A DNA stretch of 64,000 bases from a bacterium. GTDB taxonomy: Bacteria; UBP6; JAFGXH01. Positions 21,359-63,156 of this stretch are shown here, piece after piece. Numbering within the stretch: position 1 is the first letter of the stretch; every line of letters starts with the position of its first letter. The stretch is taken from NCBI GenBank assembly GCA_027064085.1, contig JAMOQH010000157.1:706-64705 (forward strand). The letters are read 5' to 3'. A model generated the notes under the pieces. That model saw nothing but the letters and a program-made list of their open reading frames with translations. It made no database searches and was not told the DNA's origin. Made by a program: the position numbers and the translations under genes.

Positions 21359-21904
21359 CTATAAGTTAAAAAAATTATTAACATCATTAATAAACGTTTC
21401 TAATTGATTTGCTATTTTTATAAAATATTCATTTTTTGTATTTCTTTTTATATTACTTGAAAATTCATCAAGCCATGATAAGTACTCTTTATAAAAACTT
21501 TTAGCTTCTTTTTCTAAATCATTTGTTAATAAAAGAGTCATAAATTCCATCATTGTAGGAACAAAATCAGGAAACTGTTCATTTGATAACTCTATTCCGT
21601 ATTCTTCGTATAGATCATATAACTTATTACTATATTCAGATACCACCATACCGGTTTGATATGCAGAGAAATAAGGTGGACATGGTGTTTTAGGGTAACC
21701 TGTAATAAACAAGGAAGTATATTCAGCTTCTAACTCTTCTCTATTGTTATCAAATCCAATTAAAATTTCATTAAAAGTTTTTTGCGTATTCTCTTCTTTA
21801 ATTTGGCTAATAGTTTTTTCAATATCATCTTTCAACTCTTTAGTTGGATATGTTAAAAACTTAGCTAAAACAAAGAATTTTTGTGCTAATATTTCTGTAT
21901 TCAA
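21359..21904 (-). CDS. hypothetical protein, possibly TorD/DmsD/NarJ-like redox-enzyme maturation chaperone
   Basis: 181 aa. 'EYTSLFITGYPKTPCPPYFSAY' resembles the TorD-family 'EYxRLFxGP...PPYESxY' motif. It lies 8 bp upstream of rocD on the same strand. Confidence 0.35.
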   Translation of the reverse strand: MNTEILAQKFFVLAKFLTYPTKELKDDIEKTISQIKEENTQKTFNEILIGFDNNREELEAEYTSLFITGYPKTPCPPYFSAYQTGMVVSEYSNKLYDLYEEYGIELSNEQFPDFVPTMMEFMTLLLTNDLEKEAKSFYKEYLSWLDEFSSNIKRNTKNEYFIKIANQLETFINDVNNFFNL

Positions 21905-29707: not shown

Positions 29708-30829
29708 TTAAAAATAAGGACTTGCCTGAACAGGCTCTAATTCTACATTTGTATTACTTGATGTATCTGTTTTTTTAAAAGAAATGTCCATAGGATCACT
29801 CTTTTCTTCAATATAATCATTTTCAACAATTAATTCTTCCACTGTTGGAGTGATATTATTATTATCATCTCCGTATGTAATAATATCATTGTTACAACTT
29901 TTCATTGCAATCTCTGCTTGCTTAACTTCATTAAATGAGGAATAAACCTTAGCTAGTAATTGTTTTGCTTTACTTAAATTAGATTTCGCAATCGCTTCAT
30001 CTATTGCAACACCATTATCTTCAGCCCTTCTAACATACCCTTTTATTGTCATTACATTACCATTAATACAATCTAATTTAGGTATATTCTTTTCTTTTCT
30101 AGTTTTCTTTAATACTGTATAAGCATTAGATAAAATAGACCTCATCTTTCCAATATATTTATTCGCAGAACTTGTTACTTCTCCTTCATTAAAAGACTTA
30201 AATTTATTTGTTTTGCTTGAATTTTTATTTTCTATAGTTTCAAATTTTGAATTAAAACTTTTTATTTGAGCCATATTTATATTTGTAACAATAGGTAAAT
30301 TTTCTCCGCTTACTTCTAATACTTTATTAGAAGTAAGCTTTAGCTTATTAAATTTATCAAGAACTGATTTAACTGCAATAATTCCTTCTGTAAGAAATAT
30401 TTTTACCTTTTGGGAGTGGTTAGTTAAAACAAAGGAAGTTCCTTTAATTTCTAGTGTAATATATCCACTAGTTATTTCAAAAAGGTTATTTCCAAACTTT
30501 CTTTTAACATTAACTTTAATGTCTCCAGAAATTAATTTTAAAAGTGCAAACCTTTTACTTTTGCTAGCATCGACTACAAATTTTTTAATTGATAATTTTG
30601 TTTTTTTAGCTAATGATATTTCTGTTTCATCATTAAATTTTATTTTTATTTTACCTTTTTTAGTGTCAATTAAATCACTACTATAAATAGAATCACCTTT
30701 ATTTAGTATTTCGTCTCTGCTTGTGGAGCGCACTCTATAAACTTTTCCTTCAACAGATCTGATAACTCCAACTTGCTGTTCAAGCCCTAAAAGACTAAAT
30801 GATAATAGAAAAAATATTATATATTTCAT
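29708..30829 (-). CDS. secreted FecR-domain-like protein
   Basis: Signal peptide present. 'VGVIRSVEGKVYRV...GDSIYSSDLIDTKKGKIKIKFNDETEISLAKKTKLSI...SGDIKVNV...ITSGYITLEIKGTSFVL...VKIFLTEGIIAV' follows the FecR beta-sandwich pattern. Confidence 0.5.
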   Translation of the reverse strand: MKYIIFFLLSFSLLGLEQQVGVIRSVEGKVYRVRSTSRDEILNKGDSIYSSDLIDTKKGKIKIKFNDETEISLAKKTKLSIKKFVVDASKSKRFALLKLISGDIKVNVKRKFGNNLFEITSGYITLEIKGTSFVLTNHSQKVKIFLTEGIIAVKSVLDKFNKLKLTSNKVLEVSGENLPIVTNINMAQIKSFNSKFETIENKNSSKTNKFKSFNEGEVTSSANKYIGKMRSILSNAYTVLKKTRKEKNIPKLDCINGNVMTIKGYVRRAEDNGVAIDEAIAKSNLSKAKQLLAKVYSSFNEVKQAEIAMKSCNNDIITYGDDNNNITPTVEELIVENDYIEEKSDPMDISFKKTDTSSNTNVELEPVQASPYF

Positions 30830-31691: not shown

Positions 31692-33329
31692 TTAAGGGCG
31701 AGGTCTGCAATATTTACTAGGATATGGATAAGAAGTATTTTCATAACAATAAAAATTACTACTATAGCAATCACTATCCGTTTCGCAAGTATCCATCCAA
31801 TACATCATCCAAGAATCATTTACATTCATACCTACACACATAACTTCATTAGGATAAGTTGTATTATCAAGAGCTCCTTGCTGAGGACAATCACTTGCCA
31901 CACATATATTGTAATGTTCAAAAGCCATACATGTTCCATTTTGATAATCACAATCAAAATCTGAATTACACTCTATACCAACTGGTTTCAATGAGCTATC
32001 ATATTTACAGTAACCTAAATCATCCCAGTTATTAACAGAAATACACCTGTTGTATTCCTCACATTTAGAATTATTAATATTACCTTCACTTGGCTTGCAA
32101 GCAGGCTCACACCTTTTGGTCGTTTCTGAATTATTATCGTGATCAACACAAATACTACCTTGTAAACAAAGATTATTTTTATTACACAATCTTCCATTTT
32201 CTAAAGTACCTGTTACAGCACAAGCATTATAACTAATTTCATCAAAAGGATAACATGATTTTCCCACTTCTGAACAAGAATTATCAGAGAACATATCACA
32301 GTTTATGTCTTGAGTAACACATAAACCACTATTATTGTCACAAATTTGATAATCTTTACACTCACTATCACTTAAACATTTAGGCCTACATAATTTATCA
32401 TTATTACAAGTAAAATCACTTCTGCAATCTAAAATATTATTACAAGCTTGTAAACAGTATTTACCACTTAAATAATCACCACATTTATAATCATTACAAA
32501 CACTATCATCTGTACATCTTTTAGTACAATAACCATTTTCTATACCGTTTAAAAGACAAATCATATCACTAGGACACTGACTTTGTGTATTACACATAGA
32601 CCCCATAGTAGGAGGCGGTGTACATGCTCCATCTATACACAGATAACCATCTATATCACATATACCAGTAGGATGCTCTGCACTGCATTTGTCAAGTTCA
32701 ACAATACATAATTCACCGGTTTCATCTTTTTTAAATCCTTGTTTACAATCCCATTCACATTTTGTTGTTTCTTCCCAGGCATCATTTACCCAGTTAATTT
32801 CAAACTGGGTAACAATGATTTCTCCATTTTCAGGAATAGTTATATGCCTATCACATTGAACAAGTTTTGTATTTTCCTTACAATTATCATTTTCACAATG
32901 TTGTGTATCTGTGCATTCTATATTACCACATAACTCAAGGCCATCTTTAACACAATTTAAACCAACAGGATGATAGCCACTTGTACAAATACAAATAGCT
33001 TTATCAAAATCATTTAAATCACATGTTCCATTACCACTACAATCAACAGAATTACATTTAGCTTCCTTTAGAGTTTTACAAACTCCATCATAGCATTCCT
33101 TATCTTTTTCTCTGCAATAGCCAAATTTATTTGTTTCAGAACATTCCAAATCGACTTTTTCACATTTATTTTTAACACATTCATACCCTTCAAGACACTT
33201 AACAGAGTCATCACAATAAGCCTTACTTGCTGTTGAAGCAGCACATGATGATAATAATAAAAAGATAAATATTATTATATAGTGGAAATTATTCCTGATT
33301 ATATTACCTAAATTCATAAAAATACCCAA
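31692..33329 (-). CDS. secreted cysteine-rich repeat protein (EGF-like / myxobacterial-type Cys-rich repeats)
   Basis: 545 aa with a signal peptide. Many Cys residues (on the order of 70 by eye) fall in recurring C-x-C-x(n)-C-x-G-x-C units, e.g. 'CEKVDLECSETNKFGYCREKDKECYDGVCK', 'CNSVDCSGNGTCDLNDFDKAICICTSGYHPVGLNC'. Confidence 0.6.
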   Translation of the reverse strand: MGIFMNLGNIIRNNFHYIIIFIFLLLSSCAASTASKAYCDDSVKCLEGYECVKNKCEKVDLECSETNKFGYCREKDKECYDGVCKTLKEAKCNSVDCSGNGTCDLNDFDKAICICTSGYHPVGLNCVKDGLELCGNIECTDTQHCENDNCKENTKLVQCDRHITIPENGEIIVTQFEINWVNDAWEETTKCEWDCKQGFKKDETGELCIVELDKCSAEHPTGICDIDGYLCIDGACTPPPTMGSMCNTQSQCPSDMICLLNGIENGYCTKRCTDDSVCNDYKCGDYLSGKYCLQACNNILDCRSDFTCNNDKLCRPKCLSDSECKDYQICDNNSGLCVTQDINCDMFSDNSCSEVGKSCYPFDEISYNACAVTGTLENGRLCNKNNLCLQGSICVDHDNNSETTKRCEPACKPSEGNINNSKCEEYNRCISVNNWDDLGYCKYDSSLKPVGIECNSDFDCDYQNGTCMAFEHYNICVASDCPQQGALDNTTYPNEVMCVGMNVNDSWMMYWMDTCETDSDCYSSNFYCYENTSYPYPSKYCRPRP

Positions 33330-34603: not shown

Positions 34604-35896
34604 TTAAAACATATACTTTAATTCAAAAAAGAATCTACTAAATTCTTCAAGCCGCCCAAATCTTGTACCACTAGCTCCTCTAAAATTTATTACACCTATG
34701 TAAGATTTTAATTGGCTTGATATATTCCAAGAAGCAAACAATAAATTCATCATATTTAAATCTAATAAATCAGCAGAACCTAAAAATTGAAAACTTAACA
34801 TTGGAGTAAATGAATATCTTATTCTGTAAATAGTGCTATATGTATTTATTCTTGATACAAAAATATCATCTCCAAGCATAGGACTCAAACTATCATACTC
34901 TAACTGCCTGTTGTAATTTAATAATCTTGTGTAAGATATTTGTAAAGAAATAGATAAACCATTAGAAAATTCTTTTTCAAAGCCAAATGCTGTTTTTATA
35001 TTTCTATTTTTAATACTAACATCTTTACCAATTTCATCTTCTGTATGATGATATGCTAATTCAAAAAGCCAAACTGTATCAAATAATATTGTTTCAAAAT
35101 CTAAACCCATTACTTGTAGCTTTTTGTATTCTGGAGTAAATGTTGCCACATTCATATCAACAACAACAGAAAAATTTCTATCATATCCTTTAAAATAATT
35201 TAATGAAAAATCAGTATCTTCTCCTACCTCAAATGTAATTTTAGCACCAATTTCAGTATTGGTAATATTTCTTGATGAATGTTTTGCTATTGTTTTAGTT
35301 AGTGGCCCCATTTGATTTGGTAATTCCATTTTATTTATAGGAGCAATTGGAAGAAATACTGTTTCTAATGTTGCAATATCAAAAAGATTAAAATCTAATT
35401 TTAAGGCATCAACAGCAACTCTATAGTTCTCTTTTTCTGCACTCATAGTCATAAAATTCCATGGAGAAATAACATCAAGTGCCCCACCCCATTCAAATTT
35501 TCCCCAAAAAATATACTGACGCCCTAATTTTAAATCAAGGAACCCTCCTATATCTCTAATCCCTATATAACCTTCTTTAAAATAAGTTGTCATGCCATCT
35601 GAATTCAAAGAAGTTGGTTCTTGTTCTAAAATTTTAAAATCATAATCAAATTCTAATATTGTATTAAAATAAATATCTTTAGTTACATCGTTATTAAACC
35701 TTAATTGTAAAGTTAAACCACCTCTATCATATATAAATTTATCTTTTTTTAATTTTTGATTACTCCAATTTATGTCAGACATAGCTCCACTAATATCAGT
35801 ATAATTGTAGTCCTTGATATAACCTGATATTAAATTATTTTCTGCAAATAAATTAACAGTAAATATAAAAAATGCCAAAATAGGTATTATTCTCAT
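34604..35896 (-). CDS. putative outer-membrane beta-barrel protein, hypothetical
   Basis: Signal peptide 'ILAFFIFTVNLFA'. Alternating hydrophobic strands. C-terminal aromatic residue ('...ELKYMF'). 1-bp gap to the flavoprotein gene. Confidence 0.35.
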   Translation of the reverse strand: MRIIPILAFFIFTVNLFAENNLISGYIKDYNYTDISGAMSDINWSNQKLKKDKFIYDRGGLTLQLRFNNDVTKDIYFNTILEFDYDFKILEQEPTSLNSDGMTTYFKEGYIGIRDIGGFLDLKLGRQYIFWGKFEWGGALDVISPWNFMTMSAEKENYRVAVDALKLDFNLFDIATLETVFLPIAPINKMELPNQMGPLTKTIAKHSSRNITNTEIGAKITFEVGEDTDFSLNYFKGYDRNFSVVVDMNVATFTPEYKKLQVMGLDFETILFDTVWLFELAYHHTEDEIGKDVSIKNRNIKTAFGFEKEFSNGLSISLQISYTRLLNYNRQLEYDSLSPMLGDDIFVSRINTYSTIYRIRYSFTPMLSFQFLGSADLLDLNMMNLLFASWNISSQLKSYIGVINFRGASGTRFGRLEEFSRFFFELKYMF

Positions 35897-35908
35897 GATT
35901 TCCTTATT

Positions 35909-36643
35909 TTATAAAGTTTTTAAATATCTTGTTGTAAATATCTTTGAAGAGATTTTCTTTATTTTTATATTTGTTAATATAATTTCAGCCTTAACGCCCT
36001 CATCAAGGTCACTTGTTTCCATTTTAGTAATAAAATTAACATTATTTATCTTTTTTGATTCTAAAACAGTTTGTATTCTTCTTTTTTTGCCATCTTTACC
36101 AAAAAATTCTGTTTTAACAATAATGTTTTTTTTCTTGTTAATATTCAATATAAGTTTTTTATAACCTGTAATTTCTATGGTTTTATCAGATTTAGCAATA
36201 GCTTCAACAGTAACAATACTATTTTCTTCTTTTAATAATTTGTAATTCCATAATTCAACTCTTGGTTTTAACAAATAAAGAGACAAAAAATCTCTTAACA
36301 TAAAATTATCACCATTAGCAGGAACCTTTTTAACTCTTCTTAGTGCTCTTAAATAAATATACCTTTTATCTTTTAGGTTTTTATTACAATGAGCTAAAAA
36401 AGCCATCCCTTTCATGTGAGAAGGAAAAGTAAATATTGCTAAAATTTTTTGTCCATCTTTAGTATCAATAGCTTTGACTGTCATTTTTTTTATTAGGCTT
36501 TCCTTATTTCCTCTTTTTAAATCTAATTGCATATTTGCAGAAAATCCTGTCCAAGACATATTTTTTAAAATATTTTCTATATTTGATTCATAAGAAAATA
36601 ATTGGAGATTAAACATAAAAACAAATAAAATCAAAAACTTCAT
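35909..36643 (-). CDS. LolA-like outer-membrane lipoprotein-sorting family protein
   Basis: 244 aa with a signal peptide. The overall pattern resembles the 'outer membrane lipoprotein-sorting protein' (LolA-fold) family: 'KKMTVKAIDTKDGQKILAIFTFPSHMKGMAFL...RYIYLRALRRVKKV'. Confidence 0.45.
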   Translation of the reverse strand: MKFLILFVFMFNLQLFSYESNIENILKNMSWTGFSANMQLDLKRGNKESLIKKMTVKAIDTKDGQKILAIFTFPSHMKGMAFLAHCNKNLKDKRYIYLRALRRVKKVPANGDNFMLRDFLSLYLLKPRVELWNYKLLKEENSIVTVEAIAKSDKTIEITGYKKLILNINKKKNIIVKTEFFGKDGKKRRIQTVLESKKINNVNFITKMETSDLDEGVKAEIILTNIKIKKISSKIFTTRYLKTL

Positions 36644-37014: not shown

Positions 37015-38016
37015 TTAATCAATATCTAGTATTTCAACATTTTCGGTAATATTACTTTCGGGTAAAACTACTGAAAATTTAACTTGAGGGTCAGTATCTT
37101 CTGCCTTAAAACCAGTTCCATCAACATCACCATAAAGCCAAATATAAAAATCACCATTATAATCAGTTGCAAGTTTAAATGTTCCTTCTTTTGTTGGGTC
37201 TAAAGTAAAGGTATATGGAAAAGTAATAGGTCCGTCTATAAAATGAGCATATTTAGGCATTCCCCCATAAGTATCATTATCATAACCAGCAAGACCTATT
37301 CTTTTTATTTCTTTTGAACCTGTGTAATTAACGGTAATATTCATTTCATAAGATTTTGTAGTTGCTTCACATGTTAATTGGTCTTCACTACAAATAGTAC
37401 CTGCCTCACAAGTTCCACAAGTATTACCACCACAACCATCATCGCCACAAACTTTATCTGTACAATCAGGCACACAATTGTCTTCACAAACACCTTCATT
37501 ACATACTTTATTATCTTCACATTTTCCATTTGGATGTTCTTTAGAACATAAATCTTCATTAGTTGTTTGGTCTTTTAATTCAACATTAAATGTTTCATCT
37601 TTAGTTGGAGTAAAATCAGCTCCTAGATAAACCGGGTCTATACTATGAACTTCTAGTTTTCCGTCTGTTGTATCAACATCACCATAAATAACAACTAAAT
37701 ATTTTTTCCCTTTAAATCCTTCTAGTTTAATTTCAACTTCTTTAGAAAAATCAACTCCACCTGTTGTAAGGGCTTCAGTAGGAAAAGAAAGCGCACTTGC
37801 AGGAGAGCCAGCAGGCATTTGATTTTGTACACTTGTTTCATAATCAAAAAAAGCTGCTCTTACTTGTTTAATTTCAGAACTTCCTTTATAGTCTATTTTA
37901 TAAGTTAAGGTATAGCTTTCTTTATCTGTATTTTTTACAATTTTCTCATCTCCACATGCAGAAAACACAAACATTGAGATTAAAGAAAGAGCTAGAATTT
38001 GGTAAATTCTTTTCAT
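37015..38016 (-). CDS. cysteine-rich lipoprotein (EGF-like Cys cluster)
   Basis: Signal peptide plus lipobox 'VFSACGDEK'. Central cluster 'CSKEHPNGKCEDNKVCNEGVCEDNCVPDCTDKVCGDDGCGGNTCGTCEAGTICSEDQLTCE'. Confidence 0.5.
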   Translation of the reverse strand: MKRIYQILALSLISMFVFSACGDEKIVKNTDKESYTLTYKIDYKGSSEIKQVRAAFFDYETSVQNQMPAGSPASALSFPTEALTTGGVDFSKEVEIKLEGFKGKKYLVVIYGDVDTTDGKLEVHSIDPVYLGADFTPTKDETFNVELKDQTTNEDLCSKEHPNGKCEDNKVCNEGVCEDNCVPDCTDKVCGDDGCGGNTCGTCEAGTICSEDQLTCEATTKSYEMNITVNYTGSKEIKRIGLAGYDNDTYGGMPKYAHFIDGPITFPYTFTLDPTKEGTFKLATDYNGDFYIWLYGDVDGTGFKAEDTDPQVKFSVVLPESNITENVEILDID

Positions 38017-52654: not shown

Positions 52655-52691
52655 AATGCTACCAATTAAATTATAAGGAAAAAATAGAAAG

Positions 52692-52764
52692 TGCCCAGGG
52701 TCGGAATCGAACCAACGACACGGGGATTTTCAGTCCCCTGCTCTACCGACTGAGCTACCTGGGC
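52692..52764 (-). tRNA. tRNA-Phe (anticodon GAA)
   Basis: The reverse complement GCCCAGGTAGCTCAGTCGGTAGAGCAGGGGACTGAAAATCCCCGTGTCGTTGGTTCGATTCCGACCCTGGGCA folds as a cloverleaf: a 7-bp acceptor stem, D-loop AGTCGGTA, anticodon loop CTGAAAA (GAA), T-loop TTCGATT. CCA is not encoded. Confidence 0.9.
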
Positions 52765-53387: not shown

Positions 53388-55595
53388 ATGAGCTTTTTTA
53401 AAAACCTTAAGATACAATATCAAATGATAATACCAGTAATATTTATATTTTTATTGGTAATTATAGCTAGAATTATTACAGGACAAGCAAATTTAACTAA
53501 TTTAGGAGATATTATTATTTCTGAAACAATAGTTAATATGCCTGAAAAAATAAAAAGTGATATTGATGCTAAAATAAAGGTAACTGCAGAGAGAGCTAGT
53601 TTATTATCTGAAAATAGAAAGTTAATTGAATTATTTAATGATGCAGAATATGCTAAAGATGGAGAAAAAGAAGAAAAAAGAAAAAAATTTACTGATTATT
53701 TAGACTCTATTATTGCTAGAATAAAGGAAATGTCAGATGAAAAAACTGTTAAAATACATTTTCATACAGCAGATGTTAAATCATTTTATAGAGCTTGGAA
53801 AAAAAATAAACATGGAGATGATTTAAGTAGTTTTAGAAAAACAATCATAGATGCGAATAAAACCAAAAAAATAGTAAAAGGTATGGAAGTAGGGAAAGGA
53901 GCTATTCCTGTTAGAGCAATAGTACCAATACAATACAAAGGAAAATGGATAGGAACATTTGAGTATATGGAAGACATAAGGCCATTATTTAAAAACGAAA
54001 AAACAGAAAATATGACAGTTGCTTTTTTTGTTGATTCAAAAACAATGAAAGGAGCCCATAGAGAACTTAAAGAGAGTGAAAGATTTGGAGATTTGTATCT
54101 AACAACTAGCAATAATGATAAAATTTTAAAAAAGCATAAAAAATTATTTACTCAAATTATAAAAAAAGCATATATTGGCAAAAAAGAAACTTTAAATGAA
54201 AATGATGACTATATTACTGCAAGACCATATAAAGATTACTCAGGTAATATTATAGGGGTTATTTTAGTTCATTATGATAAACATGAAGTTATTAAGGCCA
54301 AAACTTCTGTTATGAAGAAAACTCTTATGTCTGCAATGGTTGCAATTAGTATTATTTTTATTCTTTTGTTTTTTATTTCCAGATTAATATCAAAACCAAT
54401 TTTGAATTTAAAAAGCTTTTTTGAAATTGCTTCTAGTGGAAAAGCTGATTTGACATTAAGGTTAAATGAAGTTTCTAATAGTAATAATGAAATAAATGAA
54501 GTTTCTATATTTTTTAATAAATTTATTTCTAATTTGCAAAAAATGATAATAGATTTAAACAGTAATGCTAGAAACTTAAATAAATCATCAGATATTTTAA
54601 AATCTGAAAGTATTGAAATGAAGGAAGGAAATAAAAATAATAATGAAATAACTAAACAAGTAAAAGATAAATTAGAAAATATAAATAGTAAAAACACAAA
54701 AATGACTAAAGAGTTAAATACAGCAACTTCGGATATAAATAATTTAGAAAATAAATTACAAAAAATTAATAGTTCGTTTAAAGAAATTGAGCAAGACTCT
54801 AATAATATAAAAGATATGACTTTAAGTGTGTCATCGGCAATAGAAGAAATGAATGCCACAATTAATGAAATATCATCAAATACAGTACAGGCAAGTGCTC
54901 TTTCTCAAAAAGCCTCAGAAAACGGAAAAGAAACAACCAAATTAATGAAAGAATTAAATCGTTCTACACAATCAATAACTGATATTGTAACTTTAATTGA
55001 AGAAATTGCTAGTCAAACTAATTTACTTGCCTTAAATGCAACTATAGAAGCTGCAAGTGCAGGAGAAGCAGGTAAGGGGTTTGCTGTTGTTGCTAATGAA
55101 ATTAAAAATCTAGCAAATCAAACAGCAGATGCAACTAAAAAAATATCACAACAGGTTGGTGGGATACAAACTGAAATGGAGAAATCTGTAGAGCATATTA
55201 TCAATATGTCTGATGATATTGAAAGTGTTAATCATGTTAATATTAATATTGCATCAGCTATAGAGCAACAAAACTCAACTATTGCTGAAATATCAAATAA
55301 TGTGCAACAAACATTGACAGCAGTTAATAATAGTACTGGTAACATTAAAGAAGTAGCTATCGAAATTGATGATGCCTCTGAAAAGATAGATTATATAACA
55401 GAAAATGTAAATAATATTATGCATAAAACTACTGAAATAAATGAAGAGCTTGGTAATTCTATGGATTCGGTTATAGAAGCAAGTAACTTATCTATTAAGT
55501 TGTATGAAAAGAGTGAATCTGTTTATGATAAATCTAATGAAACATCAGCTTTATCAGAAAATTTAAATGAAATTGTTAAAAAGTTTAAATTTTAA
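53388..55595 (+). CDS. methyl-accepting chemotaxis protein (Cache-like sensor + HAMP + MCP signalling domain)
   Basis: An N-terminal TM helix, a ~270-aa periplasmic domain and a second TM helix. HAMP present. Highly conserved signalling core '[41 protein letters not shown]'. Confidence 0.9.
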
Positions 55596-55811
55596 TTATT
55601 TTTTAATAACTTTAACTTTAACCTTTTTTTTAGTTTTGGTTTTAACTTTAACGCCTTTGTCATCTTTTTTAATTGTTGTTTTTTTAGTTTTAACTTTAAC
55701 ATTATCATTATCTGTTTTTACAACAACTTTTTTAGTTTTAACAACAGTTTTACCTGCATAAATTGTAGATACTGCAAATAATGCTACTAATCCAATCATA
55801 ATTGCTTTCAT
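55596..55811 (-). CDS. small secreted Lys/Val-rich repeat protein, hypothetical
   Basis: Signal peptide 'MKAIMIGLVALFAVSTIYAG', then 'KTVVKTKKVVVKTDNDNVKVKTKKTTIKKDDKGVKVKTKTKKKVKVKVIKK'. A GGAGG RBS lies 5 nt upstream of this ATG (the track ORF starts 12 nt further upstream at 55823). Confidence 0.4.
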   Translation of the reverse strand: MKAIMIGLVALFAVSTIYAGKTVVKTKKVVVKTDNDNVKVKTKKTTIKKDDKGVKVKTKTKKKVKVKVIKK

Positions 55812-55909
55812 ACTTTCCTCCAAAAAATAAATATGAGATAATATCTATACATAAAATTGCTATAAAATCAAATAATTATGAGTTTTTAGAGTAAAAATGA
55901 ATAAAATTA

Positions 55910-58270
55910 TTAAAACCAGTTGTTATATATCATGTTTATCCCAAAAAATAGATTATATGAATAAGACCAATTTTTTTCTTTTTCTTTATAAGCATAAGAA
56001 TCTATTTTTGTAGAAAAATGAAAAAATCCTAATATTGGAATATTTATATTAAATAAAAAATTTGCTATATTTGTTTGATTAAATCCAAGGAAATAATCAA
56101 GTTTAGATGTTATTTTAATTGGAATATCTAAACTTTTAATTTCATAGTTGTTTAAGTTATATCCAATAATTGAACCTAATAAAATATCATCATCTTTTCT
56201 GAAATCTTTAGAACCTTGTAAGCCTAGTTTAAATTCAAATTTATTATCAGAAGAAAGAAATGATATTCCACTTGAGAAAAATAATTCAAAATAGTGTTTT
56301 TCTTCTATTTTGGGTTTTGTCAATTCACTGTTAAGTTTACTTTCTAAAAATGGAAGTGGGATTAATATGTTATTCTGATTATTTATTTTAAAGTAATTAC
56401 TTTTGTAATTAAAAGCATAACTTATTGTGTCATTACTTTCCATAAATTCAGTATTATTTTCATTAGATTGATAGTAATGTAATTCAAATCTATTTTCAAT
56501 TATATGATATTTAGAACTTCCAATAAGATTAATATTTGAATCTAGTTTTAATAATTCTGTTGGAGTTGTATCAAATCTAGGCTTACTATATACGGAGTCA
56601 TTGGATACATCATTTTTTATATAGTAGATTCCTAAATTACTATAAAATTCCCATAAAAACCTTTTAGATAAGTCTTCAAATTCAATACTAGGATTAAAAA
56701 AAGAGTTTTTCTTTTTAAATTTTTCTTTTTTTAAATAATTTTTAAATATGTTTTTTATTCTACCATAATACTTCTTCTTTTTAATAAAAAATTCATCTTT
56801 AAAAAATCCATCACCACCATTTACAATAAATTCAGTTGTTACTACTTTGTATTTTTTTTTATCAATAATATTACGGCCATTAATTTTAATATTTTTGCCA
56901 AAATTTATATTTGTAAAAAGGAGTTTATTTTTATTTTTTTTTAAGAATTTTTTTAGTAATTTTCCTTTTATTCTGAAACTTGCGATTTTATTGTTATAAG
57001 TGATCGATTTTTCTATAGTATCGTATGTGAGTTTATTTATAGGGAAAGGTTTATTATTGAAATTACCTTCATTAATCATAGCTATTTCACTGTTTGTTTT
57101 CATAATCATTAATTTTAAAATAAAACTATAAAATGTTTTAAAAGAAAGAGATTTTATCTTCATATTATTTATAGGTAAATCATATTTTTTAAAATACTGT
57201 TTTCTATAGTTTTCTAAGATTTTTTTAAAAATAATGGAAACTTTTGATTTGTATTTAAATTTCTTGTTTAAATTTTCAATATTTTTTATTTGAAATTTAT
57301 TATTTATCTTTTTGATTTTTAATAGTAATAAATTAGGGGTATATCTATCAGGATTTGCTCCTATTATATAGATGTCATTATTATATCTTCTTATTAACCT
57401 TGTGTTTTCAGCATTACTAATTATTAAATCTATATTTTTTAATTTTTCAGATAAATTCATTGTTTTTTTAGGAGAAGTCTCCTTGTCTTCTACCTGAGCT
57501 AAAAGAATAATTACATCAACGCCCTTTTTTTCTTTTAAATATTTTGCTAGTTTATTAGTTTGCTTTATTTCTGGTAAAATATTCATATTTTTAATAGATT
57601 TATAAAATGCTTTTTTCATAATAGTATGTGAAACGACTGAAATTATTCCAATTTTTACATTATTTATTTTAAGAATTCTGTATTTTCTGTTTTTAGTTAA
57701 TTTACAAAGTGGTAAATTTTGAGAATTAGTGCAATTCATATTTGATGATAAAAACGGAAGGCTCATAATTTTTTTATTTTGAGATAGTTTTTTCATTATA
57801 TTATAGGGAGTATAAAAATCCTTTTTTCCTATATTTATTATGTCAAAATTATTTTCTTTAAGTAATGAATATACAAAATCTATGCCTTTAGGTTGTTGTA
57901 ATAAAAACTTAATTGAAATACTTGGCCAAAAACTTGCTCCGTTATTTAGAGTAATAGGTTTTTCCCAGTTATTAATTAGAGGTAATATATTTTGGTAATA
58001 TTTTATTTTTCCGAGTAGGTTATAGTAGCTATTTTTTTGAGTTTTATCTATGTTTATAAAACGGCCTTCAAAATCGGATATATATATAATGGGTATATTT
58101 ATTATTTTTTCTTTTTCTCCCCTAGCTTGAGTTGTTATTCCCGTAGAATAAGGTATCGCCTTATCCATACTATGATCAGGAGATTTAGAAATTTGATGTG
58201 TTACATCACTATTGGGTAAAGCCCAAACTATAATATTTAATAAAAACAAACTGATTACTAGTTTTATCAT
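55910..58270 (-). CDS. 5'-nucleotidase/UshA-fold family protein with degenerate metal-binding motifs and a C-terminal beta-barrel-like extension
   Basis: Signal peptide 'MIKLVISLFLLNIIVWALP'. Start placed at this Met (the track ORF starts 42 nt upstream at 58312 and would overlap the next gene). UshA-like blocks 'IIYISDFEG' (cf. TNDHHG), 'FDIINIGKKDF' (cf. AIGNHEFD), 'LPFLSSNM' (cf. PLLSANI), 'VVTTEFIVNGGDGF'. The last ~270 aa show alternating beta-strand character and end in '...NNWF'. Confidence 0.45.
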   Translation of the reverse strand: MIKLVISLFLLNIIVWALPNSDVTHQISKSPDHSMDKAIPYSTGITTQARGEKEKIINIPIIYISDFEGRFINIDKTQKNSYYNLLGKIKYYQNILPLINNWEKPITLNNGASFWPSISIKFLLQQPKGIDFVYSLLKENNFDIINIGKKDFYTPYNIMKKLSQNKKIMSLPFLSSNMNCTNSQNLPLCKLTKNRKYRILKINNVKIGIISVVSHTIMKKAFYKSIKNMNILPEIKQTNKLAKYLKEKKGVDVIILLAQVEDKETSPKKTMNLSEKLKNIDLIISNAENTRLIRRYNNDIYIIGANPDRYTPNLLLLKIKKINNKFQIKNIENLNKKFKYKSKVSIIFKKILENYRKQYFKKYDLPINNMKIKSLSFKTFYSFILKLMIMKTNSEIAMINEGNFNNKPFPINKLTYDTIEKSITYNNKIASFRIKGKLLKKFLKKNKNKLLFTNINFGKNIKINGRNIIDKKKYKVVTTEFIVNGGDGFFKDEFFIKKKKYYGRIKNIFKNYLKKEKFKKKNSFFNPSIEFEDLSKRFLWEFYSNLGIYYIKNDVSNDSVYSKPRFDTTPTELLKLDSNINLIGSSKYHIIENRFELHYYQSNENNTEFMESNDTISYAFNYKSNYFKINNQNNILIPLPFLESKLNSELTKPKIEEKHYFELFFSSGISFLSSDNKFEFKLGLQGSKDFRKDDDILLGSIIGYNLNNYEIKSLDIPIKITSKLDYFLGFNQTNIANFLFNINIPILGFFHFSTKIDSYAYKEKEKNWSYSYNLFFGINMIYNNWF

Positions 58271-58280
58271 AAAAACCTCT

Positions 58281-60542
58281 TTAAATTTTATATCTTTTAA
58301 TGTATATTTCAAGTAAAAATAATAGTATTAATAACAATAACATATAAACATTATCCCAAATAGGAACATATTTTTTTTCTGTAATTTCTGAGATTAATTT
58401 TTTAATTTTAATTTTACTTGCACTTTCATCATAACTTAGTATTTTAATATTCTGATATTTTGATATTTCTGATAAAAACTTTTTATTAATTTGTGGATTG
58501 TCAAATTCTTTGGATTTATCTTTAACAATAAACATACTGTAACTATTTTCTAACAACTTGCCTTTTAGATAAGTTTTAAATTCTATTTTATATCTTCCAT
58601 TTTTCTTAATTTTTTCTAATATTTGGGCTGTTCCAGAATTGTCTAGTTTTACTTCTTTTTTTATTAAAAACTTGTCATTGTCAATATTTGTTATTTGATA
58701 ATATAGTTTATTATTTTTTAATGGATTATAGTGGTAGTCATATGCTTTAATTAAAATGGATAAAGTTTCCTTTTTAGAAATGATGTTAGCATCAAATGAC
58801 ACTTTGATTAATTTCATATCAGGGTCTTTAATTAACCATTTTATTGCTTTATCCCAAAAATAACTATATATTTGCTTATGGGTAATATCTATTAATTTAT
58901 GAAAATTCCAAGTCCATTGGCTATCTGTTGTAATTGCCATTGTTCTTCCGTTTCCTGATTGTATAGTTGCTATTAAGGGATAAGTTTTATTGTTACATAC
59001 TTTATCTGTTTTAGCAATTAAAGTTGCTGTTGGTTTTAATGTCGTTTTATTGAAACCCTCTGATAATGGTAAGCCTGCTAAAGCAGATTTTTGTTTTTTA
59101 TAGTTGTTTGCAAACTTAAAGAATGGAGAGTCTAAACCATTTTTAGTTATTTTATAATGTGTATTTTTATAACAAATACTATCTTTTGCTGATTTTGAGC
59201 TTAAATTAACGGGTAAAATATCTTCTATTGGAGTGCCTTTATAGCCTCCTGCAGTAAAGGAATTTAGGCCTCCTATCATAACAAGTCCACCACCTCTTTT
59301 AGTAACAAAATCTTTAATATTTTGTAGATATGGTGATATTCCATAGGGAGCGTAATTAAAATTTTGTAAAATAATTAAATCAAAACTATTTAATCTATCA
59401 TAAAATAATTCGTGTGCAGGAAAGGGTATAAGAGATAGTTCTCTTTCAGGTACTAAATATACATCATTAGTTGTTCTTAAAATAAAAAATGATACCAAAT
59501 CAACATCTGGATGATTTTTTAATAATTGCCTCATAAATCTAACATCCCAACTAGGTTTTCCAACAACTTGTACAACTCTTATTTTATCTCTTATTACATT
59601 AATTATAAAATCTTTTTTATTATTAATTAGTAACTCTTCATTCTTTTCAGGTGGAATAATTACCGTGTATATGTATGTTCCCACATTTTTAGGTTTAAAT
59701 TTAAATGAAATTTTAATGTTTTTATTATCACTTAAAGAAACAGTTTTTCTATCAATAATTTCTTTATTTCTATACAGAAATACTTTTTTATTTATATTTT
59801 TATATCCAATAGATGATATTTCTAAGTCTATTGAAGTTGTATTTTGTACAAAAGCATAGCTATCATATTGTATTTTTTTAATGAAGATATCTTTTGTAGT
59901 CTTAATTTGTGGTAATATTAAGTTTAAGGGAATTTTATTTTTTATTAATTTTCTTATTATACCCGTTGAGCTTGTTAATTTTTCATCTGTATCAATAAAA
60001 TCAGATGCTATTATTATTGAGGATATTTCATTTATTGTATGATTTTGTAAAAATTTATTTAATGAATATCTTATTCTTGTTTCATCATCTATTGGAGTAA
60101 TCTTATGTTTATTATCAATTGCTTTAAGAGTTGTTCCAATACTATAAAAGATTGTATTGTATTCTTTTCTTAATTTATCAATTATAATTTTATTATTTTT
60201 AAAAAAATAATTTAAATTTTGAAACCTATTATTTTCTGTATTTTTCAGAGGGAGGGTTAATGATTTAGAGGTATCTTTAAAGAAAAATATTGATTTTTTA
60301 CCTTTATTAAATTTAACATACTCTAAAGATGGTTCTAAAAAAATAAAAAGCATTAATAGTAACAGTAGTGATCTAATGGACAATAATAAAATTCTTTTTT
60401 TAGGTAGTTTTAGATAACTATATATACTAAAAATAATAATACCCAAAAATCCAATATATATAAAAATATTTATTGGAGATAAATTTAAATTTAAAAATGT
60501 AAATTTATTATATGCAAATTCACTTAATATTTTACTATTCAT
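58281..60542 (-). CDS. membrane protein with N-terminal double-TM segment and class-I glutamine-amidotransferase-like (GATase1-like) domain
   Basis: Two TM helices flanking 'KLPKKR' (BatA-type N-terminal double-TM pattern). 'RGGGLVMIGGLNSFTAGGY' is GATase1-like. 753 aa. Confidence 0.4.
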   Translation of the reverse strand: MNSKILSEFAYNKFTFLNLNLSPINIFIYIGFLGIIIFSIYSYLKLPKKRILLLSIRSLLLLLMLFIFLEPSLEYVKFNKGKKSIFFFKDTSKSLTLPLKNTENNRFQNLNYFFKNNKIIIDKLRKEYNTIFYSIGTTLKAIDNKHKITPIDDETRIRYSLNKFLQNHTINEISSIIIASDFIDTDEKLTSSTGIIRKLIKNKIPLNLILPQIKTTKDIFIKKIQYDSYAFVQNTTSIDLEISSIGYKNINKKVFLYRNKEIIDRKTVSLSDNKNIKISFKFKPKNVGTYIYTVIIPPEKNEELLINNKKDFIINVIRDKIRVVQVVGKPSWDVRFMRQLLKNHPDVDLVSFFILRTTNDVYLVPERELSLIPFPAHELFYDRLNSFDLIILQNFNYAPYGISPYLQNIKDFVTKRGGGLVMIGGLNSFTAGGYKGTPIEDILPVNLSSKSAKDSICYKNTHYKITKNGLDSPFFKFANNYKKQKSALAGLPLSEGFNKTTLKPTATLIAKTDKVCNNKTYPLIATIQSGNGRTMAITTDSQWTWNFHKLIDITHKQIYSYFWDKAIKWLIKDPDMKLIKVSFDANIISKKETLSILIKAYDYHYNPLKNNKLYYQITNIDNDKFLIKKEVKLDNSGTAQILEKIKKNGRYKIEFKTYLKGKLLENSYSMFIVKDKSKEFDNPQINKKFLSEISKYQNIKILSYDESASKIKIKKLISEITEKKYVPIWDNVYMLLLLILLFLLEIYIKRYKI

Positions 60543-61276
60543 CGTCTATTCTTCAATAAATAATCTACATGAACTTGGTCTGCCTTGTAAGCTAAACAAG
60601 TTGCATACATAATTATATTAACCCCTGTTCTGTAGGCCATTTCCCTTGTTTTATTTCCTTCAGGAACCGAGTATTTCCAGTTACTAAAATCATCTACTGT
60701 GAGTGCTCCTATTATATCATTCTTGGAATATAATATTTCTATTCTGTTGTCTTCTTCTATTATATAAAAATTTGAGCTTATATTTAATCTTCCATATGGT
60801 TTATCAAGCAAGTTAAATGTTCTGTAAATAACATGATCTTTAGGAGCTATTTTTAATTTCTTTTTAGGATATAAGCTCTCAATTAAATTTTCTATAGATT
60901 TATTAAATGTTCCACTTGCTTCATCACTTGCAGAGTCAATAAAGAGCAAACCCCCAAAAGTTAAATAATTTTTTAAATTTTTAATTTCTGTTTTTGATAG
61001 TGAAAATTTTTTATCACCTGTTAAAAATAAAAGAGGATGTTTAAACAGTTTCTTTTTATTTTTTAAATCTATATCAATAATATCAAAAGAAACTTCAATA
61101 CTTGTTCTTTTAGAAACTTCCCAAAGCATTTTTTTTAAACCACTGTTTCTAAAGTTGTAATTTCCAGAATATTTTAAAATCCCAATTTCTAGAAATGATG
61201 ATTTTCCTATTGCTTTTAGTGATTGTGAAAAAAATGGAATTGATAAAATAGATAAAATAAATTGTTTTCTATTCAC
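60539..61276 (-). CDS. DUF4159-like secreted protein
   Basis: Signal peptide present. 'HPLLFLTGDKKFSLSKTEIKNLKNYLTFGGLLFIDSASDE' resembles the DUF4159 core. 4-nt overlap with the downstream gene. Confidence 0.4.
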   Translation of the reverse strand: MNRKQFILSILSIPFFSQSLKAIGKSSFLEIGILKYSGNYNFRNSGLKKMLWEVSKRTSIEVSFDIIDIDLKNKKKLFKHPLLFLTGDKKFSLSKTEIKNLKNYLTFGGLLFIDSASDEASGTFNKSIENLIESLYPKKKLKIAPKDHVIYRTFNLLDKPYGRLNISSNFYIIEEDNRIEILYSKNDIIGALTVDDFSNWKYSVPEGNKTREMAYRTGVNIIMYATCLAYKADQVHVDYLLKNRR

Positions 61277-61278
61277 TT

Positions 61279-61518
61279 TTATGATTCACTGTTTTCATTT
61301 AATTGTTTGTTTGATTCAGAGGTTGCCAATACTTTTTTTTCTTCACTTTCTTCTTTTTTATCATCATCGGTAACACCTTTTTTAAATTCTTTTATACCTT
61401 TACCAAAACCACCCATTAATTTAGGGATTTTACTTCCTCCAAAAATAACTAAAACGATAAATAGAACTATTAGTAATTCTGGTGTTGAGGGCATTGCAAG
61501 TAATATATTTTGATTCAT
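61279..61518 (-). CDS. tatA: twin-arginine translocase subunit TatA/E
   Basis: '[36 protein letters not shown]' is the TatA TM-hinge-amphipathic-helix signature. 79 aa with an acidic tail. Confidence 0.8.
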
Positions 61519-61581
61519 ATTTACCTCAAAAATAAAATATTCGAAATTATATTATATTTATTATTAAATTACAAGAAAGAA

Positions 61582-63156
61582 CTACTGTTCAATATAATCT
61601 TCTTCTACTAGTTTGTCTAAAATAGCATAGGTTTCTTCTTCTGATAGTTCTGTATTTTCTATAATTTCAGATATAGAACTGAAGTTATGAACAAGTTGTA
61701 AAACTTTGAGTTCATTTTTATTTAGCTCATCAAGAGGACTAAAAAGTGGCAACGGAAGAATATATTCATCATCCAAAGGAAATTTTTCTTTTAACTCGTC
61801 TATATTTATTTCTGTTTTATTTTCTTCTTCAACTAAGTCACTACTTACTGCATTTGAATTTTCTTCACTAAGTTTATTAGGTAAACTATCATGTTCTGAA
61901 ATAATTTCCTTAGGCACATCATCTAAATCATCAAGAGCAAAATCATTATCGTCATCGTCTAAATCATCAAGGTTGAAGTCATCATTTTTAGGCTTTGCTG
62001 TTTTTTGAGCATCGTCATCTAAATCATCAAGAGCAAAATCATTATCGTCATCGTCTAAATCATCAAGGTTGAAGTCATCATTTTTAGGCTTTGCTGTTTT
62101 TTGAGCATCGTCATCTAAATCATCAAGAGCAAAATCATCATCGTCATCTTCTAAATCATCAAGGTTGAAGTCATCATTTTTAGGCTTTGCTGTTTCTTGA
62201 GCATCGTCATCTAAATCATCAAGAGCAAAATCATCATCGTCATCTTCTAAATCATCAAGGTTGAAGTCATCATTTTTAGGCTTTGCTGTTTCTTGAGCAT
62301 CGTCATCTAAGTCATCAAGAGCAAAATCATCATCTTCTAAATCATCAAGAGCGAAGATATCATCTTCAGCATCTATGTTTTCATCGTTAAAGTCGTCTAA
62401 GCTAAGAATGTCCTCCGAATCGTCAACATTAACACTTATTTCATCAAAACTATCTAGCATTAAATCATCGTCATCTTCTTCTAATTCAAAGTCTAGGTCA
62501 TCTAAACCAACTTCATCTTCGTACTTTGCAGCTTCAAGGAGGAATGCATCTAAACTAATATTTAATCTATTTCCAAAATCACTAGGATCTTTTTGTTCAA
62601 ATTCAAAAAAACCAGAATCAAGCTTTATGAGCTTGATAAGTATTTTCTTAGGTTCTGCATTACTACTAGTCATAATAATATCTTTAAAGATTCCTTGAAC
62701 TAATTGTATTTCAGCAGAAATAGAACCTGAAGTTATTCTTAAAACTCCTGTTTTTTTACTAGTTGCAAGTAATTGTAATACTTCTGGAATTGGAATATCC
62801 TCAATTGAGCCTGATACTGCATTTGTTCCAATTTTAGCCGCATCTTCCATATTTTGTCCAGTGTCATCACTATCTATAAACTTGGCAATAGATGTTCCAA
62901 TTAATATTCTATCATTAAGCTTAAGCTTAATTTTTTTTATTCTATTACCGTTTACAAAGGTTCCATTGGTAGAGCCCATGTCTTCAAGTATTATATCACT
63001 TCCTGATATACTTATTTTTGCATGTTTTCTTGATACCATATCTTCAGAGAGAACCATTTCTAAATCACTGTGACGCCCAATAACAATTACATTTTTGTCT
63101 AATGGAAATTCACCACCTTTATATTTACCCGAAATAAACTTAAACATTAAAGCCAT
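61582..63156 (-). CDS. FHA-domain + DUF4388-domain protein with long acidic tandem-repeat tail
   Basis: N-terminal FHA 'VIGRHSDLEMVLSEDMVSRKHAKISISGSDIILEDMGSTNGTFVNGNRI'. DUF4388-like 'IPIPEVLQLLATSKKTGVLRITSGSISAEIQLVQG'. About 230 aa of D/E-rich sequence follow, built from a repeated 32-aa unit 'FALDDLDDDAQETAKPKNDDFNLDDLEDDDDD'. Confidence 0.75.
   Translation of the reverse strand: MALMFKFISGKYKGGEFPLDKNVIVIGRHSDLEMVLSEDMVSRKHAKISISGSDIILEDMGSTNGTFVNGNRIKKIKLKLNDRILIGTSIAKFIDSDDTGQNMEDAAKIGTNAVSGSIEDIPIPEVLQLLATSKKTGVLRITSGSISAEIQLVQGIFKDIIMTSSNAEPKKILIKLIKLDSGFFEFEQKDPSDFGNRLNISLDAFLLEAAKYEDEVGLDDLDFELEEDDDDLMLDSFDEISVNVDDSEDILSLDDFNDENIDAEDDIFALDDLEDDDFALDDLDDDAQETAKPKNDDFNLDDLEDDDDDFALDDLDDDAQETAKPKNDDFNLDDLEDDDDDFALDDLDDDAQKTAKPKNDDFNLDDLDDDDNDFALDDLDDDAQKTAKPKNDDFNLDDLDDDDNDFALDDLDDVPKEIISEHDSLPNKLSEENSNAVSSDLVEEENKTEINIDELKEKFPLDDEYILPLPLFSPLDELNKNELKVLQLVHNFSSISEIIENTELSEEETYAILDKLVEEDYIEQ
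61921..62340. repeat. 96-bp direct tandem repeat array (about 4.4 copies) inside the FHA protein gene
   Basis: Unit 'atctaaatcatcaagagcaaaatcattatcgtcatcgtctaaatcatcaaggttgaagtcatcatttttaggctttgctgttttttgagcatcgtc' at 61921-62016. An identical copy at 62017-62112. Copies at 62113-62208 and 62209-62304 are identical to each other and differ from the first pair at 3 positions. A diverged partial copy follows. The repeat is in frame (32 codons). Confidence 0.9.

Follow-up and report, generated by a model that had tools for sequence, protein, structure and literature searches.

Related systems

In Myxococcota, in Bradymonadales (Persicimonas caeni, Bradymonas sediminis) and in Brocadiales, a gene for a DUF4159 protein is tightly coupled to a gene for a GATase1_like membrane protein of ~750–780 amino acids (aa). 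We found a pair with the same families, gene order, coupling and architecture in a 64,000-nucleotide stretch of a bacterial genome (hereafter, the window; GTDB lineage UBP6, JAFGXH01; GenBank assembly GCA_027064085.1, contig JAMOQH010000157.1, positions 706 to 64,705), where it belongs to a run of six co-directional genes. Here and in a few relatives of low GC (guanine plus cytosine) content, the pair differs from those described above in having tatA, for a subunit of the twin-arginine translocase (Tat), at the front of the putative operon and, within the window clade, in carrying an RK variant of the export signal. The families DUF4159 and PF07090 have solved structures, their function is so far unassigned and one is publicly annotated ‘glutamine amidotransferase’; a search of the literature on both returned nothing functional, only the Pfam database paper with a clan note.

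A tatA-family gene in an operon with a gene for a twin-arginine signal has a parallel in Bacillus subtilis, where tat loci contain or adjoin the genes for the Tat substrates phoD and efeB/ywbN (phoD-tatAd-tatCd, and efeB/ywbN near tatAy-tatCy; PMC3827258). The locus in the window departs from this arrangement in that no tatC is adjacent, tatA stands before the substrate gene rather than after it, and the predicted substrate is a domain of unknown function.

The membrane protein also resembles proteins of the Bat/MoxR-vWA clusters (BatA/BatB, Borrelia BB0173), with which it shares N-terminal transmembrane (TM) helices and a periplasmic vWA domain with a complete metal-ion-dependent adhesion site (MIDAS). 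A periplasmic complex has been proposed for Bat proteins (PMC3557215, PMC5700661), and a periplasmic vWA domain has been shown experimentally for BB0173, a Bat-type inner-membrane protein (PMC5700661) whose topology is the one predicted here for the GATase1_like protein. Unlike Bat clusters, our locus has no match to BatA_N/TIGR02226 and no MoxR, DUF58, TPR or BatD partners; present in addition are CARDB, GATase1-like and MG-like domains, another membrane anchor and a DUF4159 partner predicted to be exported by Tat. A further likeness, structural only and at ~11–13% identity, is to OST48/Wbp1 of the oligosaccharyltransferase and to the GIFT domain of IFT52/GldG; compared with these, the bacterial protein has a vWA domain and an N-terminal TM hairpin in addition, and the surroundings of its gene contain no machinery for glycosylation or transport. 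The concept of the GIFT domain is reportedly that of Beatson and Ponting in 2004.

A putative three-gene operon led by tatA

On balance, we lean towards a three-gene operon as the functional unit of this locus, reading tatA, DUF4159 and the gene for a 753-aa GATase1_like protein, with its own promoter in the 63-nucleotide (nt) spacer that follows a gene with FHA and PATAN domains. The elements of this unit are as follows.

61546-61574, minus strand: candidate sigma-70 promoter (−35 TTGTAA at 61574-61569, 17-nt spacer, −10 TATAAT at 61551-61546), with a GAGG ribosome-binding site after it
61279-61518, minus strand: tatA, a 79-aa TatA/E-family subunit of the twin-arginine translocase (PF02416, TIGR01411)
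60539-61276, minus strand: DUF4159 gene (PF13709), GTG start, 245 aa, predicted periplasmic
58281-60542, minus strand: GATase1_like gene (PF07090), 753-aa inner-membrane protein

The tatA product matched TIGR01411 at 63.2 bits (cutoff 53.9) and PF02416 at 51.8 bits (cutoff 21) and has a single TM helix (residues 7-25). After a gap of 2 nt follows the DUF4159 gene, whose product matched positions 2-201 of the 202 in PF13709 at 128 bits (cutoff 25.9); it overlaps the gene for the 753-aa protein by 4 nt, an overlap through which the last two genes would be translationally coupled.

In the mechanism that we propose, the DUF4159 protein would fold in the cytoplasm and be exported by Tat, its signal reading S/T-R-R-x-F-L in orthologs and N-R-K-Q-F-I-L in the window; in the window lineage, tatA on the same transcript would supply a TatA subunit together with the substrate. 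Once periplasmic, DUF4159 is presumed to associate with a partner anchored by an N-terminal hairpin and a C-terminal TM helix, which would display a MIDAS-vWA domain, two immunoglobulin (Ig)-like domains and a non-catalytic GATase1-like (ThuA/GIFT/OST48-like) domain. The physical association of DUF4159 with the 753-aa protein and its scaffold role are what we infer: the complex may be a metal-dependent binding or scaffolding platform on the periplasmic face of the inner membrane, rather than an enzyme of glutamine metabolism.

DUF4159 and GATase1_like form a conserved gene pair

We compared ~100 related loci (104 in the motif scan described below), expressing identities as those of the GATase1_like protein to that of the window. 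From the family alignment we selected 80 distant loci at one genome per species, searched for neighbours within ±10 kb (E<0.1, HMMER filters off) and grouped the neighbours of 84 loci into families by all-against-all clustering. In 67 of the 80 distant loci, the gene directly upstream, in the same orientation, was DUF4159; the exceptions include 4 loci truncated by the contig end and 2 in which DUF4159 lies directly downstream. Carriers of the pair among these loci belong to Myxococcota, Bradymonadia, Brocadiia/Planctomycetota and Acidobacteriota. No other neighbour family recurred in more than 14 of the 84 loci, neither MoxR nor DUF58 was among the recurrent ones, and two recurrent neighbours that we inspected reflect lineage synteny (UvrD in Bradymonadia, sigma-70/S1/cmk in Brocadia). 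The neighbourhood comparison therefore identifies the DUF4159/GATase1_like pair as the conserved entity, a self-contained, widespread and ancient two-gene module across several phyla.

An earlier reading of this sequence (the initial annotation) had grouped all six genes into a candidate envelope assembly or export module and had noted that DUF4159 and double-TM proteins co-occur elsewhere. That association proved to be a true conserved pair; the six genes are no conserved module. The initial annotation had also remarked on the absence of MoxR and DUF58, and indeed none is found among the Pfam-annotated ORFs (open reading frames) of the 64-kb window, nor are TatC or TatB; for MoxR and DUF58, the 84 loci show this absence to be the norm for the subfamily and no local peculiarity.

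In nearer relatives, the pair was found in the following settings.

L096, 63% identity: Lpd-like gene, 530-bp spacer, TatA-DUF4159-GATase1_like
L091, 51%: hexapeptide transferase, TatA-DUF4159-GATase1_like, Ser/Thr kinase
L007, 44%: minus-strand gene, TatA-DUF4159-GATase1_like, convergent lipoprotein genes
L104, 42%: FHA-TM-TPR protein (not PATAN), hexapeptide transferase, TatA-DUF4159-GATase1_like
L008 and L092, 45% and 47%: DUF4159-GATase1_like without tatA

Counting the window clade, tatA thus stands directly upstream of DUF4159 in five flank contexts (window clade, L096, L091, L104 and L007), which span trio identities of 100–72%, 63%, 51%, 44% and 42%. It precedes the pair only in the low-GC lineage of the window and is a lineage-specific yet robust addition to it. 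In L091 (378-1097) and L104 (1851-2570), only 11 nt separate tatA from the end of a gene for a hexapeptide-repeat (LbH) transferase of 239 aa, which suggests a four-gene operon in these two loci that has no counterpart beside the window tatA; because tatA follows the transferase gene so closely, the operon start there would lie further upstream.

A promoter candidate conserved in front of tatA

The promoter block CTTGTAATTTA(N4)TAAATATAATATAATT is kept in the window, in L003 (77% identity) and in L096 (63%), and the ribosome-binding site TTTTTGAGGT is conserved alongside it in all three. In L096 the upstream gene is a different one, and the alignment is lost immediately 5′ of the −35 box. TTGTAA-17-TATAAT has no second occurrence in the window, even when two mismatches are tolerated (chance expectation 0.05), and a scan of the 104 loci found it only in L001-L004, L093 and L096. 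A generic promoter and terminator scan was uninformative in DNA of 24% GC (64 matches against 63.3 expected), so comparative conservation is the sole basis of the promoter call.

As judged from these sequences, the transcription unit probably begins with tatA rather than with the FHA gene. Of the single transcription unit proposed in the initial annotation, one part stands, as the tight spacing fits co-transcription from tatA through the 5′-nucleotidase-like gene that follows the pair; a start at the FHA gene is improbable given the conserved tatA promoter.

Twin-arginine signals in DUF4159 partners

To count twin-arginine (RR) signals, we anchored 82 non-redundant DUF4159 partners on their conserved mature N-terminus (...A|[IMF]G...) and scored RR 13–30 residues upstream. 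RR was present in 63 of the 82, against 2.7% in control windows, and 58 of these 63 also had a hydrophobic core; MNRRDFLKAAALAGLGALVPGRAFA and MDRRDFLKAAGLAGL are typical signals. Every tatA-linked relative outside the immediate clade (L096, L091, L104, L007) has RR, in the forms KRREF, NRRSF and NRRHF, and the nearest outgroups read KRREF, NRRSF, NRRHF and NRRDF. The linkage to tatA is explained by these twin-arginine N-termini. Sixteen partners without RR, including all Brocadiales, look like carriers of Sec-type signals, with a higher median h-region score (3.03 versus 2.02) and a c-region that is rarely basic.

The window protein itself has an RK variant of the twin-arginine signal, MNRKQFILSILSIPFFSQSLKA|IGKSS. 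Its N-terminus runs M-N-R-K-Q-F-I-L...SLKA|IG, with a modest h-region score (2.3) and a Lys in the c-region. The RK pentapeptide is NRKQF in the window and NRKEF in the 77% relative, an AGA-to-AAA change in a genome of 24% GC; the modest h-region is shared by this relative. Substrates lacking one Arg may still be recognised by Tat (PMC3827258), and we predict Tat dependence for the window copy as well.

Several observations weigh against a tatA dedicated to this pair and against the operon reading more widely. There is no tatC or tatB in the window, and this tatA may be the only, housekeeping copy of the genome. The two relatives at 45–47% identity carry the pair without tatA, which is likewise missing from the surroundings of all 80 distant loci, so the linkage is limited to one lineage. 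The window signal is RK and ~20% of orthologs have Sec-type signals; Tat export is therefore not obligatory for the DUF4159 fold. Pair interaction and co-transcription are predictions, and DUF4159 could have a catalytic role, given its many invariant Arg, Asp, His and Glu residues. Elsewhere in the window (21359-21904, minus strand) lies a chaperone gene of the NarJ/TorD/DmsD family (PF02613, E 2.4e-18). Members of this family proofread the Tat signal peptides of molybdoenzymes, and the gene implies other Tat substrates in the organism.

Much of this fits a reading in which an ordinary housekeeping tatA happens to lie beside the pair and their relation is limited to ordinary Tat export. Such chance adjacency would account for the pairs that lack a nearby tatA, for the missing tatC, for the other Tat clients that the chaperone gene seems to indicate and for the Arg lost from the window signal. 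It sits less well with the 2–3-nt junction between tatA and DUF4159, which survives at least five flank rearrangements, or with a neighbour that encodes a predicted Tat substrate in most orthologs, among them all tatA-linked ones outside the RK clade. Moreover, a housekeeping tatA could still be co-regulated with a major client, at which point this explanation overlaps the operon that we favour. We regard it as unlikely, though it is the alternative that survives best.

A MIDAS-vWA protein with a GATase1-like domain

The 753-aa protein matched PF07090 at 44.4 bits, above the gathering threshold, and belongs to a large family (1683 full-length matches) whose public names are ‘glutamine amidotransferase’ and ‘uncharacterized membrane protein’. 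An AlphaFold model built from a 97-sequence alignment (predicted local distance difference test, pLDDT, 86.3) gave the following layout, on which Foldseek and PDB profile searches were concordant.

Residues 26-44 and 51-69: TM hairpin
Residues ~71-210: periplasmic vWA/MIDAS alpha/beta domain
Residues 218-317: CARDB-type Ig domain
Residues 321-575: GATase1-like/GIFT-like alpha/beta domain
Residues 579-673: MG-like Ig domain, followed by a small domain
Residues ~726-752: TM helix

The KLPKKR loop and the KRYKI tail place residues 70-725 in the periplasm. The MIDAS motif (DxSxS...T...D) is complete, with D90, S92, T/S155 and D181 in 97 of 97 sequences and S94 in 95 of 97. The initial annotation had listed a vWA partner as absent, wrongly, as the vWA/MIDAS domain lies inside the 753-aa protein. 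The Cys-His-Glu triad of class I glutamine amidotransferases is not present, leaving only the fold and the PF07090 match: no alignment column among the 97 family members reaches 60% Cys, and at position 472, where the best-conserved His stands in 91% of sequences, the window protein has Ser. From the lack of a conserved Cys and this replacement, we conclude that the protein is not an amidotransferase; the model points to a MIDAS-vWA protein that faces the periplasm and carries an OST48/IFT52-like domain, presumably without catalytic function.

NCBIfam returned nothing for the DUF4159 or the 753-aa protein. The PDB relative of DUF4159 is 4i66 (E 2e-38), the uncharacterized Hoch_4089 of Haliangium from structural genomics, and the solved relatives 4i66, 3rht, 2gk3 and 3soz bear only generic or ‘uncharacterized’ names. 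The many invariant polar residues of DUF4159 include E53, R57-T58-S59, H148, D187, R211, R216 and H236.

These features bear on the possibility that DUF4159, the GATase1_like protein or both form an enzyme of the periplasm, a hydrolase or amidotransferase whose substrate lies in the envelope, with the pseudo-nucleotidase encoded downstream recruited to bind that substrate. By its fold the GATase1_like domain does fall into the class-I glutamine amidotransferase/ThuA clan, the large protein goes by ‘glutamine amidotransferase’ at NCBI, and H148, H236, D187, E53 and several Arg are invariant in DUF4159. The missing Cys column and the Ser at position 472 speak against catalysis, as do OST48/Wbp1 and IFT52, the nearest structural relatives of known role, which are non-catalytic scaffolds; the solved relatives, with their generic names, offer no enzyme assignment. 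An enzyme system of this kind is, in our view, improbable.

Slightly more doubtful is a stripped-down Bat/MoxR-type system in which the 753-aa protein would take the part of BatA/BatB, DUF4159 would be an accessory to it, and the genes for MoxR and DUF58 would lie at another place in the genome. In its favour, Bat proteins too are inner-membrane proteins in which a TM hairpin at the N-terminus is combined with a periplasmic vWA domain bearing a MIDAS (PMC3557215, PMC5700661). The initial annotation had likewise called the protein BatA-style and double-TM and had named TIGR02226 as a profile to check, for which the sequence gave no match: neither PF07584 (BatA_N) nor TIGR02226 was found on the 753-aa protein at E<=0.1, and a Pfam search of its N-terminal 218 aa at E<=1 returned no BatA_N and only a weak VWA_CoxE match. 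Neither MoxR nor DUF58 appears in the window or among the recurrent neighbours, and neither the additional Ig, GATase1-like and MG domains nor a TM helix at the C-terminus is typical of Bat proteins, whose own function is unknown (PMC3557215).

The analysis provides three handles on the two families: an obligate-looking gene pair, a DUF4159 protein that is usually a predicted Tat substrate and in one lineage is probably co-transcribed with tatA, and a periplasm-facing partner with a MIDAS-vWA domain, an OST48/IFT52-like domain and no catalytic triad. It yields testable hypotheses on Tat dependence, heterodimer formation and metal-dependent ligand binding, and the pair has culturable carriers in Persicimonas, Bradymonas and Haliangium.

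Neighbouring genes outside the conserved core

All six minus-strand ORFs of the initial annotation and their coordinates were reproduced, and a check with profile hidden Markov models placed every Pfam assignment above its gathering threshold. The features flanking the trio are listed below.

61582-63156, minus strand: gene with FHA and DUF4388/PatA_N domains (PF00498, PF14332), 524 aa
61919-62334, minus strand: 96-bp tandem repeat in the FHA gene (found with TRF; 4.3 copies, 98% identity), encoding acidic 32-aa units DDFALDDLDDDAQETAKPKNDDFNLDDLEDDD
55910-58270, minus strand: 5_nucleotid_C gene (PF02872), 786 aa from ATG 58270 (longest ORF to 58312)
55596-55811, minus strand: Lys/Val-rich mini-gene, 71 aa from ATG 55811 (longest ORF 55596-55823, 75 aa)

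The 786-aa product from ATG 58270 is the one called in public assemblies, and ATG 55811, with a GGAGGA ribosome-binding site ahead of it, is the likely start of the mini-gene. With these refined starts, the gaps across the six genes are 63, 2, −4, 10 and 98 nt; the 86 nt given earlier for the last gap had been measured to a TTG start of the mini-ORF. The DNA of the cluster has a GC content of 20–31%. None of its spacers holds a terminator-like hairpin, and Rfam showed no regulatory RNA in the cluster.

The contig family of the window is present in several metagenome assemblies (L001-L004, L093, L094). Wherever a contig whose GATase1_like protein is at least 72% identical spans the locus, the six-gene order is intact; the same contigs also retain all housekeeping genes of the flanks over 10 kb or more, so the order within this close clade is uninformative on selection. 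In the source contig, the flanks comprise a divergent cdsA beyond the FHA gene, then MobB/NTP-transferase, obg, rpmA and rplU, and a convergent gene for a methyl-accepting chemotaxis protein (MCP) downstream of the cluster. Outside the close clade, the FHA-PATAN, 5′-nucleotidase-like and mini genes do not adjoin the pair at 63, 51, 47, 45, 44 or 42% identity, and searches within ±10 kb of the 80 distant loci gave no match for TatA, FHA-PATAN, the 5′-nucleotidase-like protein or the mini-protein. Gene order in relatives, by which the initial annotation had proposed to judge its module, is thus lost for three of the six genes: FHA-PATAN, the pseudo-nucleotidase and the mini-gene are recent, lineage-specific neighbours outside the conserved core.

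The FHA-PATAN protein matched PF00498 at 68.6 bits (cutoff 20.7) and PF14332 at 53.6 bits (cutoff 25). No TM helix was found in it, and by its sequence it is a predicted cytoplasmic signalling protein. In cyanobacteria, PATAN domains are known to interact with the type IV pilus motor (bioRxiv 10.1101/2021.06.11.447907). Between otherwise near-identical assemblies, the FHA product is 383, 428, 524 or 569 aa long, reflecting either real copy-number change or assembly collapse; a look-up of the exact 524-aa product gave no record, the repeat number varying by assembly. In other loci the place upstream of tatA is taken by the Lpd-like gene (L096), the hexapeptide transferase (L091, L104) or the minus-strand gene (L007). 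We rejected the FHA gene upstream of tatA in L104 as support for an FHA link, its architecture being FHA-TM-TPR and another gene lying between.

Genes of Ser/Thr phospho-signalling were nevertheless seen near the trio: a kinase downstream in L091 (4308-4607), the FHA-TM-TPR gene two genes upstream in L104 (159-1793) and FHA-PATAN in the window. Their recurrence may be fortuitous in genomes rich in kinases, or it may point to a loose functional connection.

The 786-aa protein has a Sec signal and matched PF02872 at 47.9 bits. It shares the two-domain 5′-nucleotidase fold of UshA/CD73 (Foldseek matches to UshA/CD73/SoxB, E 1e-12) and differs from them in that the metal ligands are replaced across its family. 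The metallophosphatase domain PF00149 gave no match, and the places of the 5′-nucleotidase metal motifs read SDFEGRF, NNGASF, GKKDFY and LLAQVE, which are invariant in the family: DxHG has become DFEG, GNHEFD has become GKKDFY (aligned to 3ivd) and a His has become Gln. The ‘pseudo’ attached to this nucleotidase in the initial annotation was therefore apt, with no PF00149 match and both GNHEFD and DxHG replaced.

In an AlphaFold2 model of this protein (pLDDT 58, 8 sequences), helices at 499-546 are followed by 11 long antiparallel strands at 572-780, within the C-terminal ~210 residues. Such a predicted C-terminal multi-strand barrel after helices, with a terminal aromatic residue, would be a feature in common with type Va autotransporters. 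Foldseek matches of this low-confidence barrel were weak (EspP, AaaA, Hbp, OmpG and TamA, E 0.01–0.09), and Pfam gave no match to the isolated tail at E<=1, Autotransporter PF03797 included; the model suggests that the C-terminus is probably an outer-membrane, autotransporter-like beta-barrel. HMMER returned 1268 representatives at E<=1e-3, of which 74 at E<=1e-30 were mostly of 750–900 aa and aligned over their full length. The motif-I His is missing from distant members too, and almost all those sampled have an aromatic residue at the C-terminus. The pseudo-nucleotidase with its barrel is a broad, independent and apparently unnamed family, not a local oddity, and may merit separate study. 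A homolog at 37% identity is solitary, lying between GGDEF and SnoaL genes with no mini-ORF beside it. In the window, the 10-nt gap suggests that the gene may be transcribed by read-through from the tatA operon.

The mini-protein consists of a Sec-type signal peptide and a 51-aa mature part with 22 Lys in an alternating K/V pattern; it matched no family, and an ortholog, at 54% identity, was found only in the close clade. A conserved block in the 98-nt spacer, as seen in the two sequences compared, suggests a promoter of its own. The stop of the MCP gene (53388-55595, plus strand) abuts that of the mini-gene (55596, minus strand) with no spacer, which leaves no room for an intergenic terminator.

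Could the putative complex nonetheless be wired to these neighbours? A hitherto unrecognised periplasmic complex of the Tat-exported DUF4159 protein and the MIDAS-vWA/GIFT-like membrane protein, conserved across Myxococcota, Bradymonadia, Brocadiia and this deep low-GC lineage, which in this lineage acquired a dedicated tatA and in the window clade was also connected to the outer-membrane barrel and to FHA/Ser-Thr phospho-signalling as a trans-envelope module, is a joint proposition to which we give about as little credence as to the enzyme system.

The initial proposal of one co-transcribed envelope assembly or export module starting at the FHA regulator, with an inner-membrane complex linked to an outer-membrane barrel and a small secreted protein, is only partly supported, as an observation and not as a system. 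Co-directional genes, short gaps, spacers free of terminator-like hairpins and an order kept in every close-clade contig speak for it, and the six products, predicted to reside in the cytoplasm, inner membrane, periplasm and outer membrane or to be secreted, could together bridge the envelope. Set against this, the close clade is uninformative, three of the genes fall away from 63% identity downwards and are missing around the 80 distant loci, the 5′-nucleotidase-like gene of a broad, independent family stands alone at 37%, and tatA has its own conserved promoter; the module is largely refuted by the neighbourhood data and very unlikely. Tight co-directional clusters can be misread as modules if the comparison is confined to very close relatives.

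Other features of the window and its lineage

The rest of the window consists of ordinary chromosomal housekeeping genes. Identities of Mfd (1752-5063) are 100, 87, 80 and 60% in a clade of four members and do not exceed 41% elsewhere, in matches scattered over phyla; the lineage is very poorly sampled, and its closest genome representative is the Zodletone metagenome-assembled genome JAFGXH01. The only mobile-element-like gene seen encodes a PD-(D/E)XK nuclease-family transposase (5098-6084, minus strand; PF12784, E 2.7e-60) and is followed by a 660-bp gap. At 6746-9622 (plus strand), adjoining DUF72 and histidine kinase genes, a 958-aa STAND-like protein combines an AAA_16 ATPase with multiple TPR in a MalT-like manner. 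Four minus-strand ORFs had no Pfam match at E<=1e-5 (24247-26550, 767 aa; 31692-33329, 545 aa; 34604-35896, 430 aa; 37015-38016, 333 aa), two of which flank a LolA-like gene (35909-36643) and a FecR-domain gene (29708-30829). By ARAGORN and Rfam, the only RNA gene in the window is tRNA-Phe (GAA) at 52691-52764 on the minus strand.

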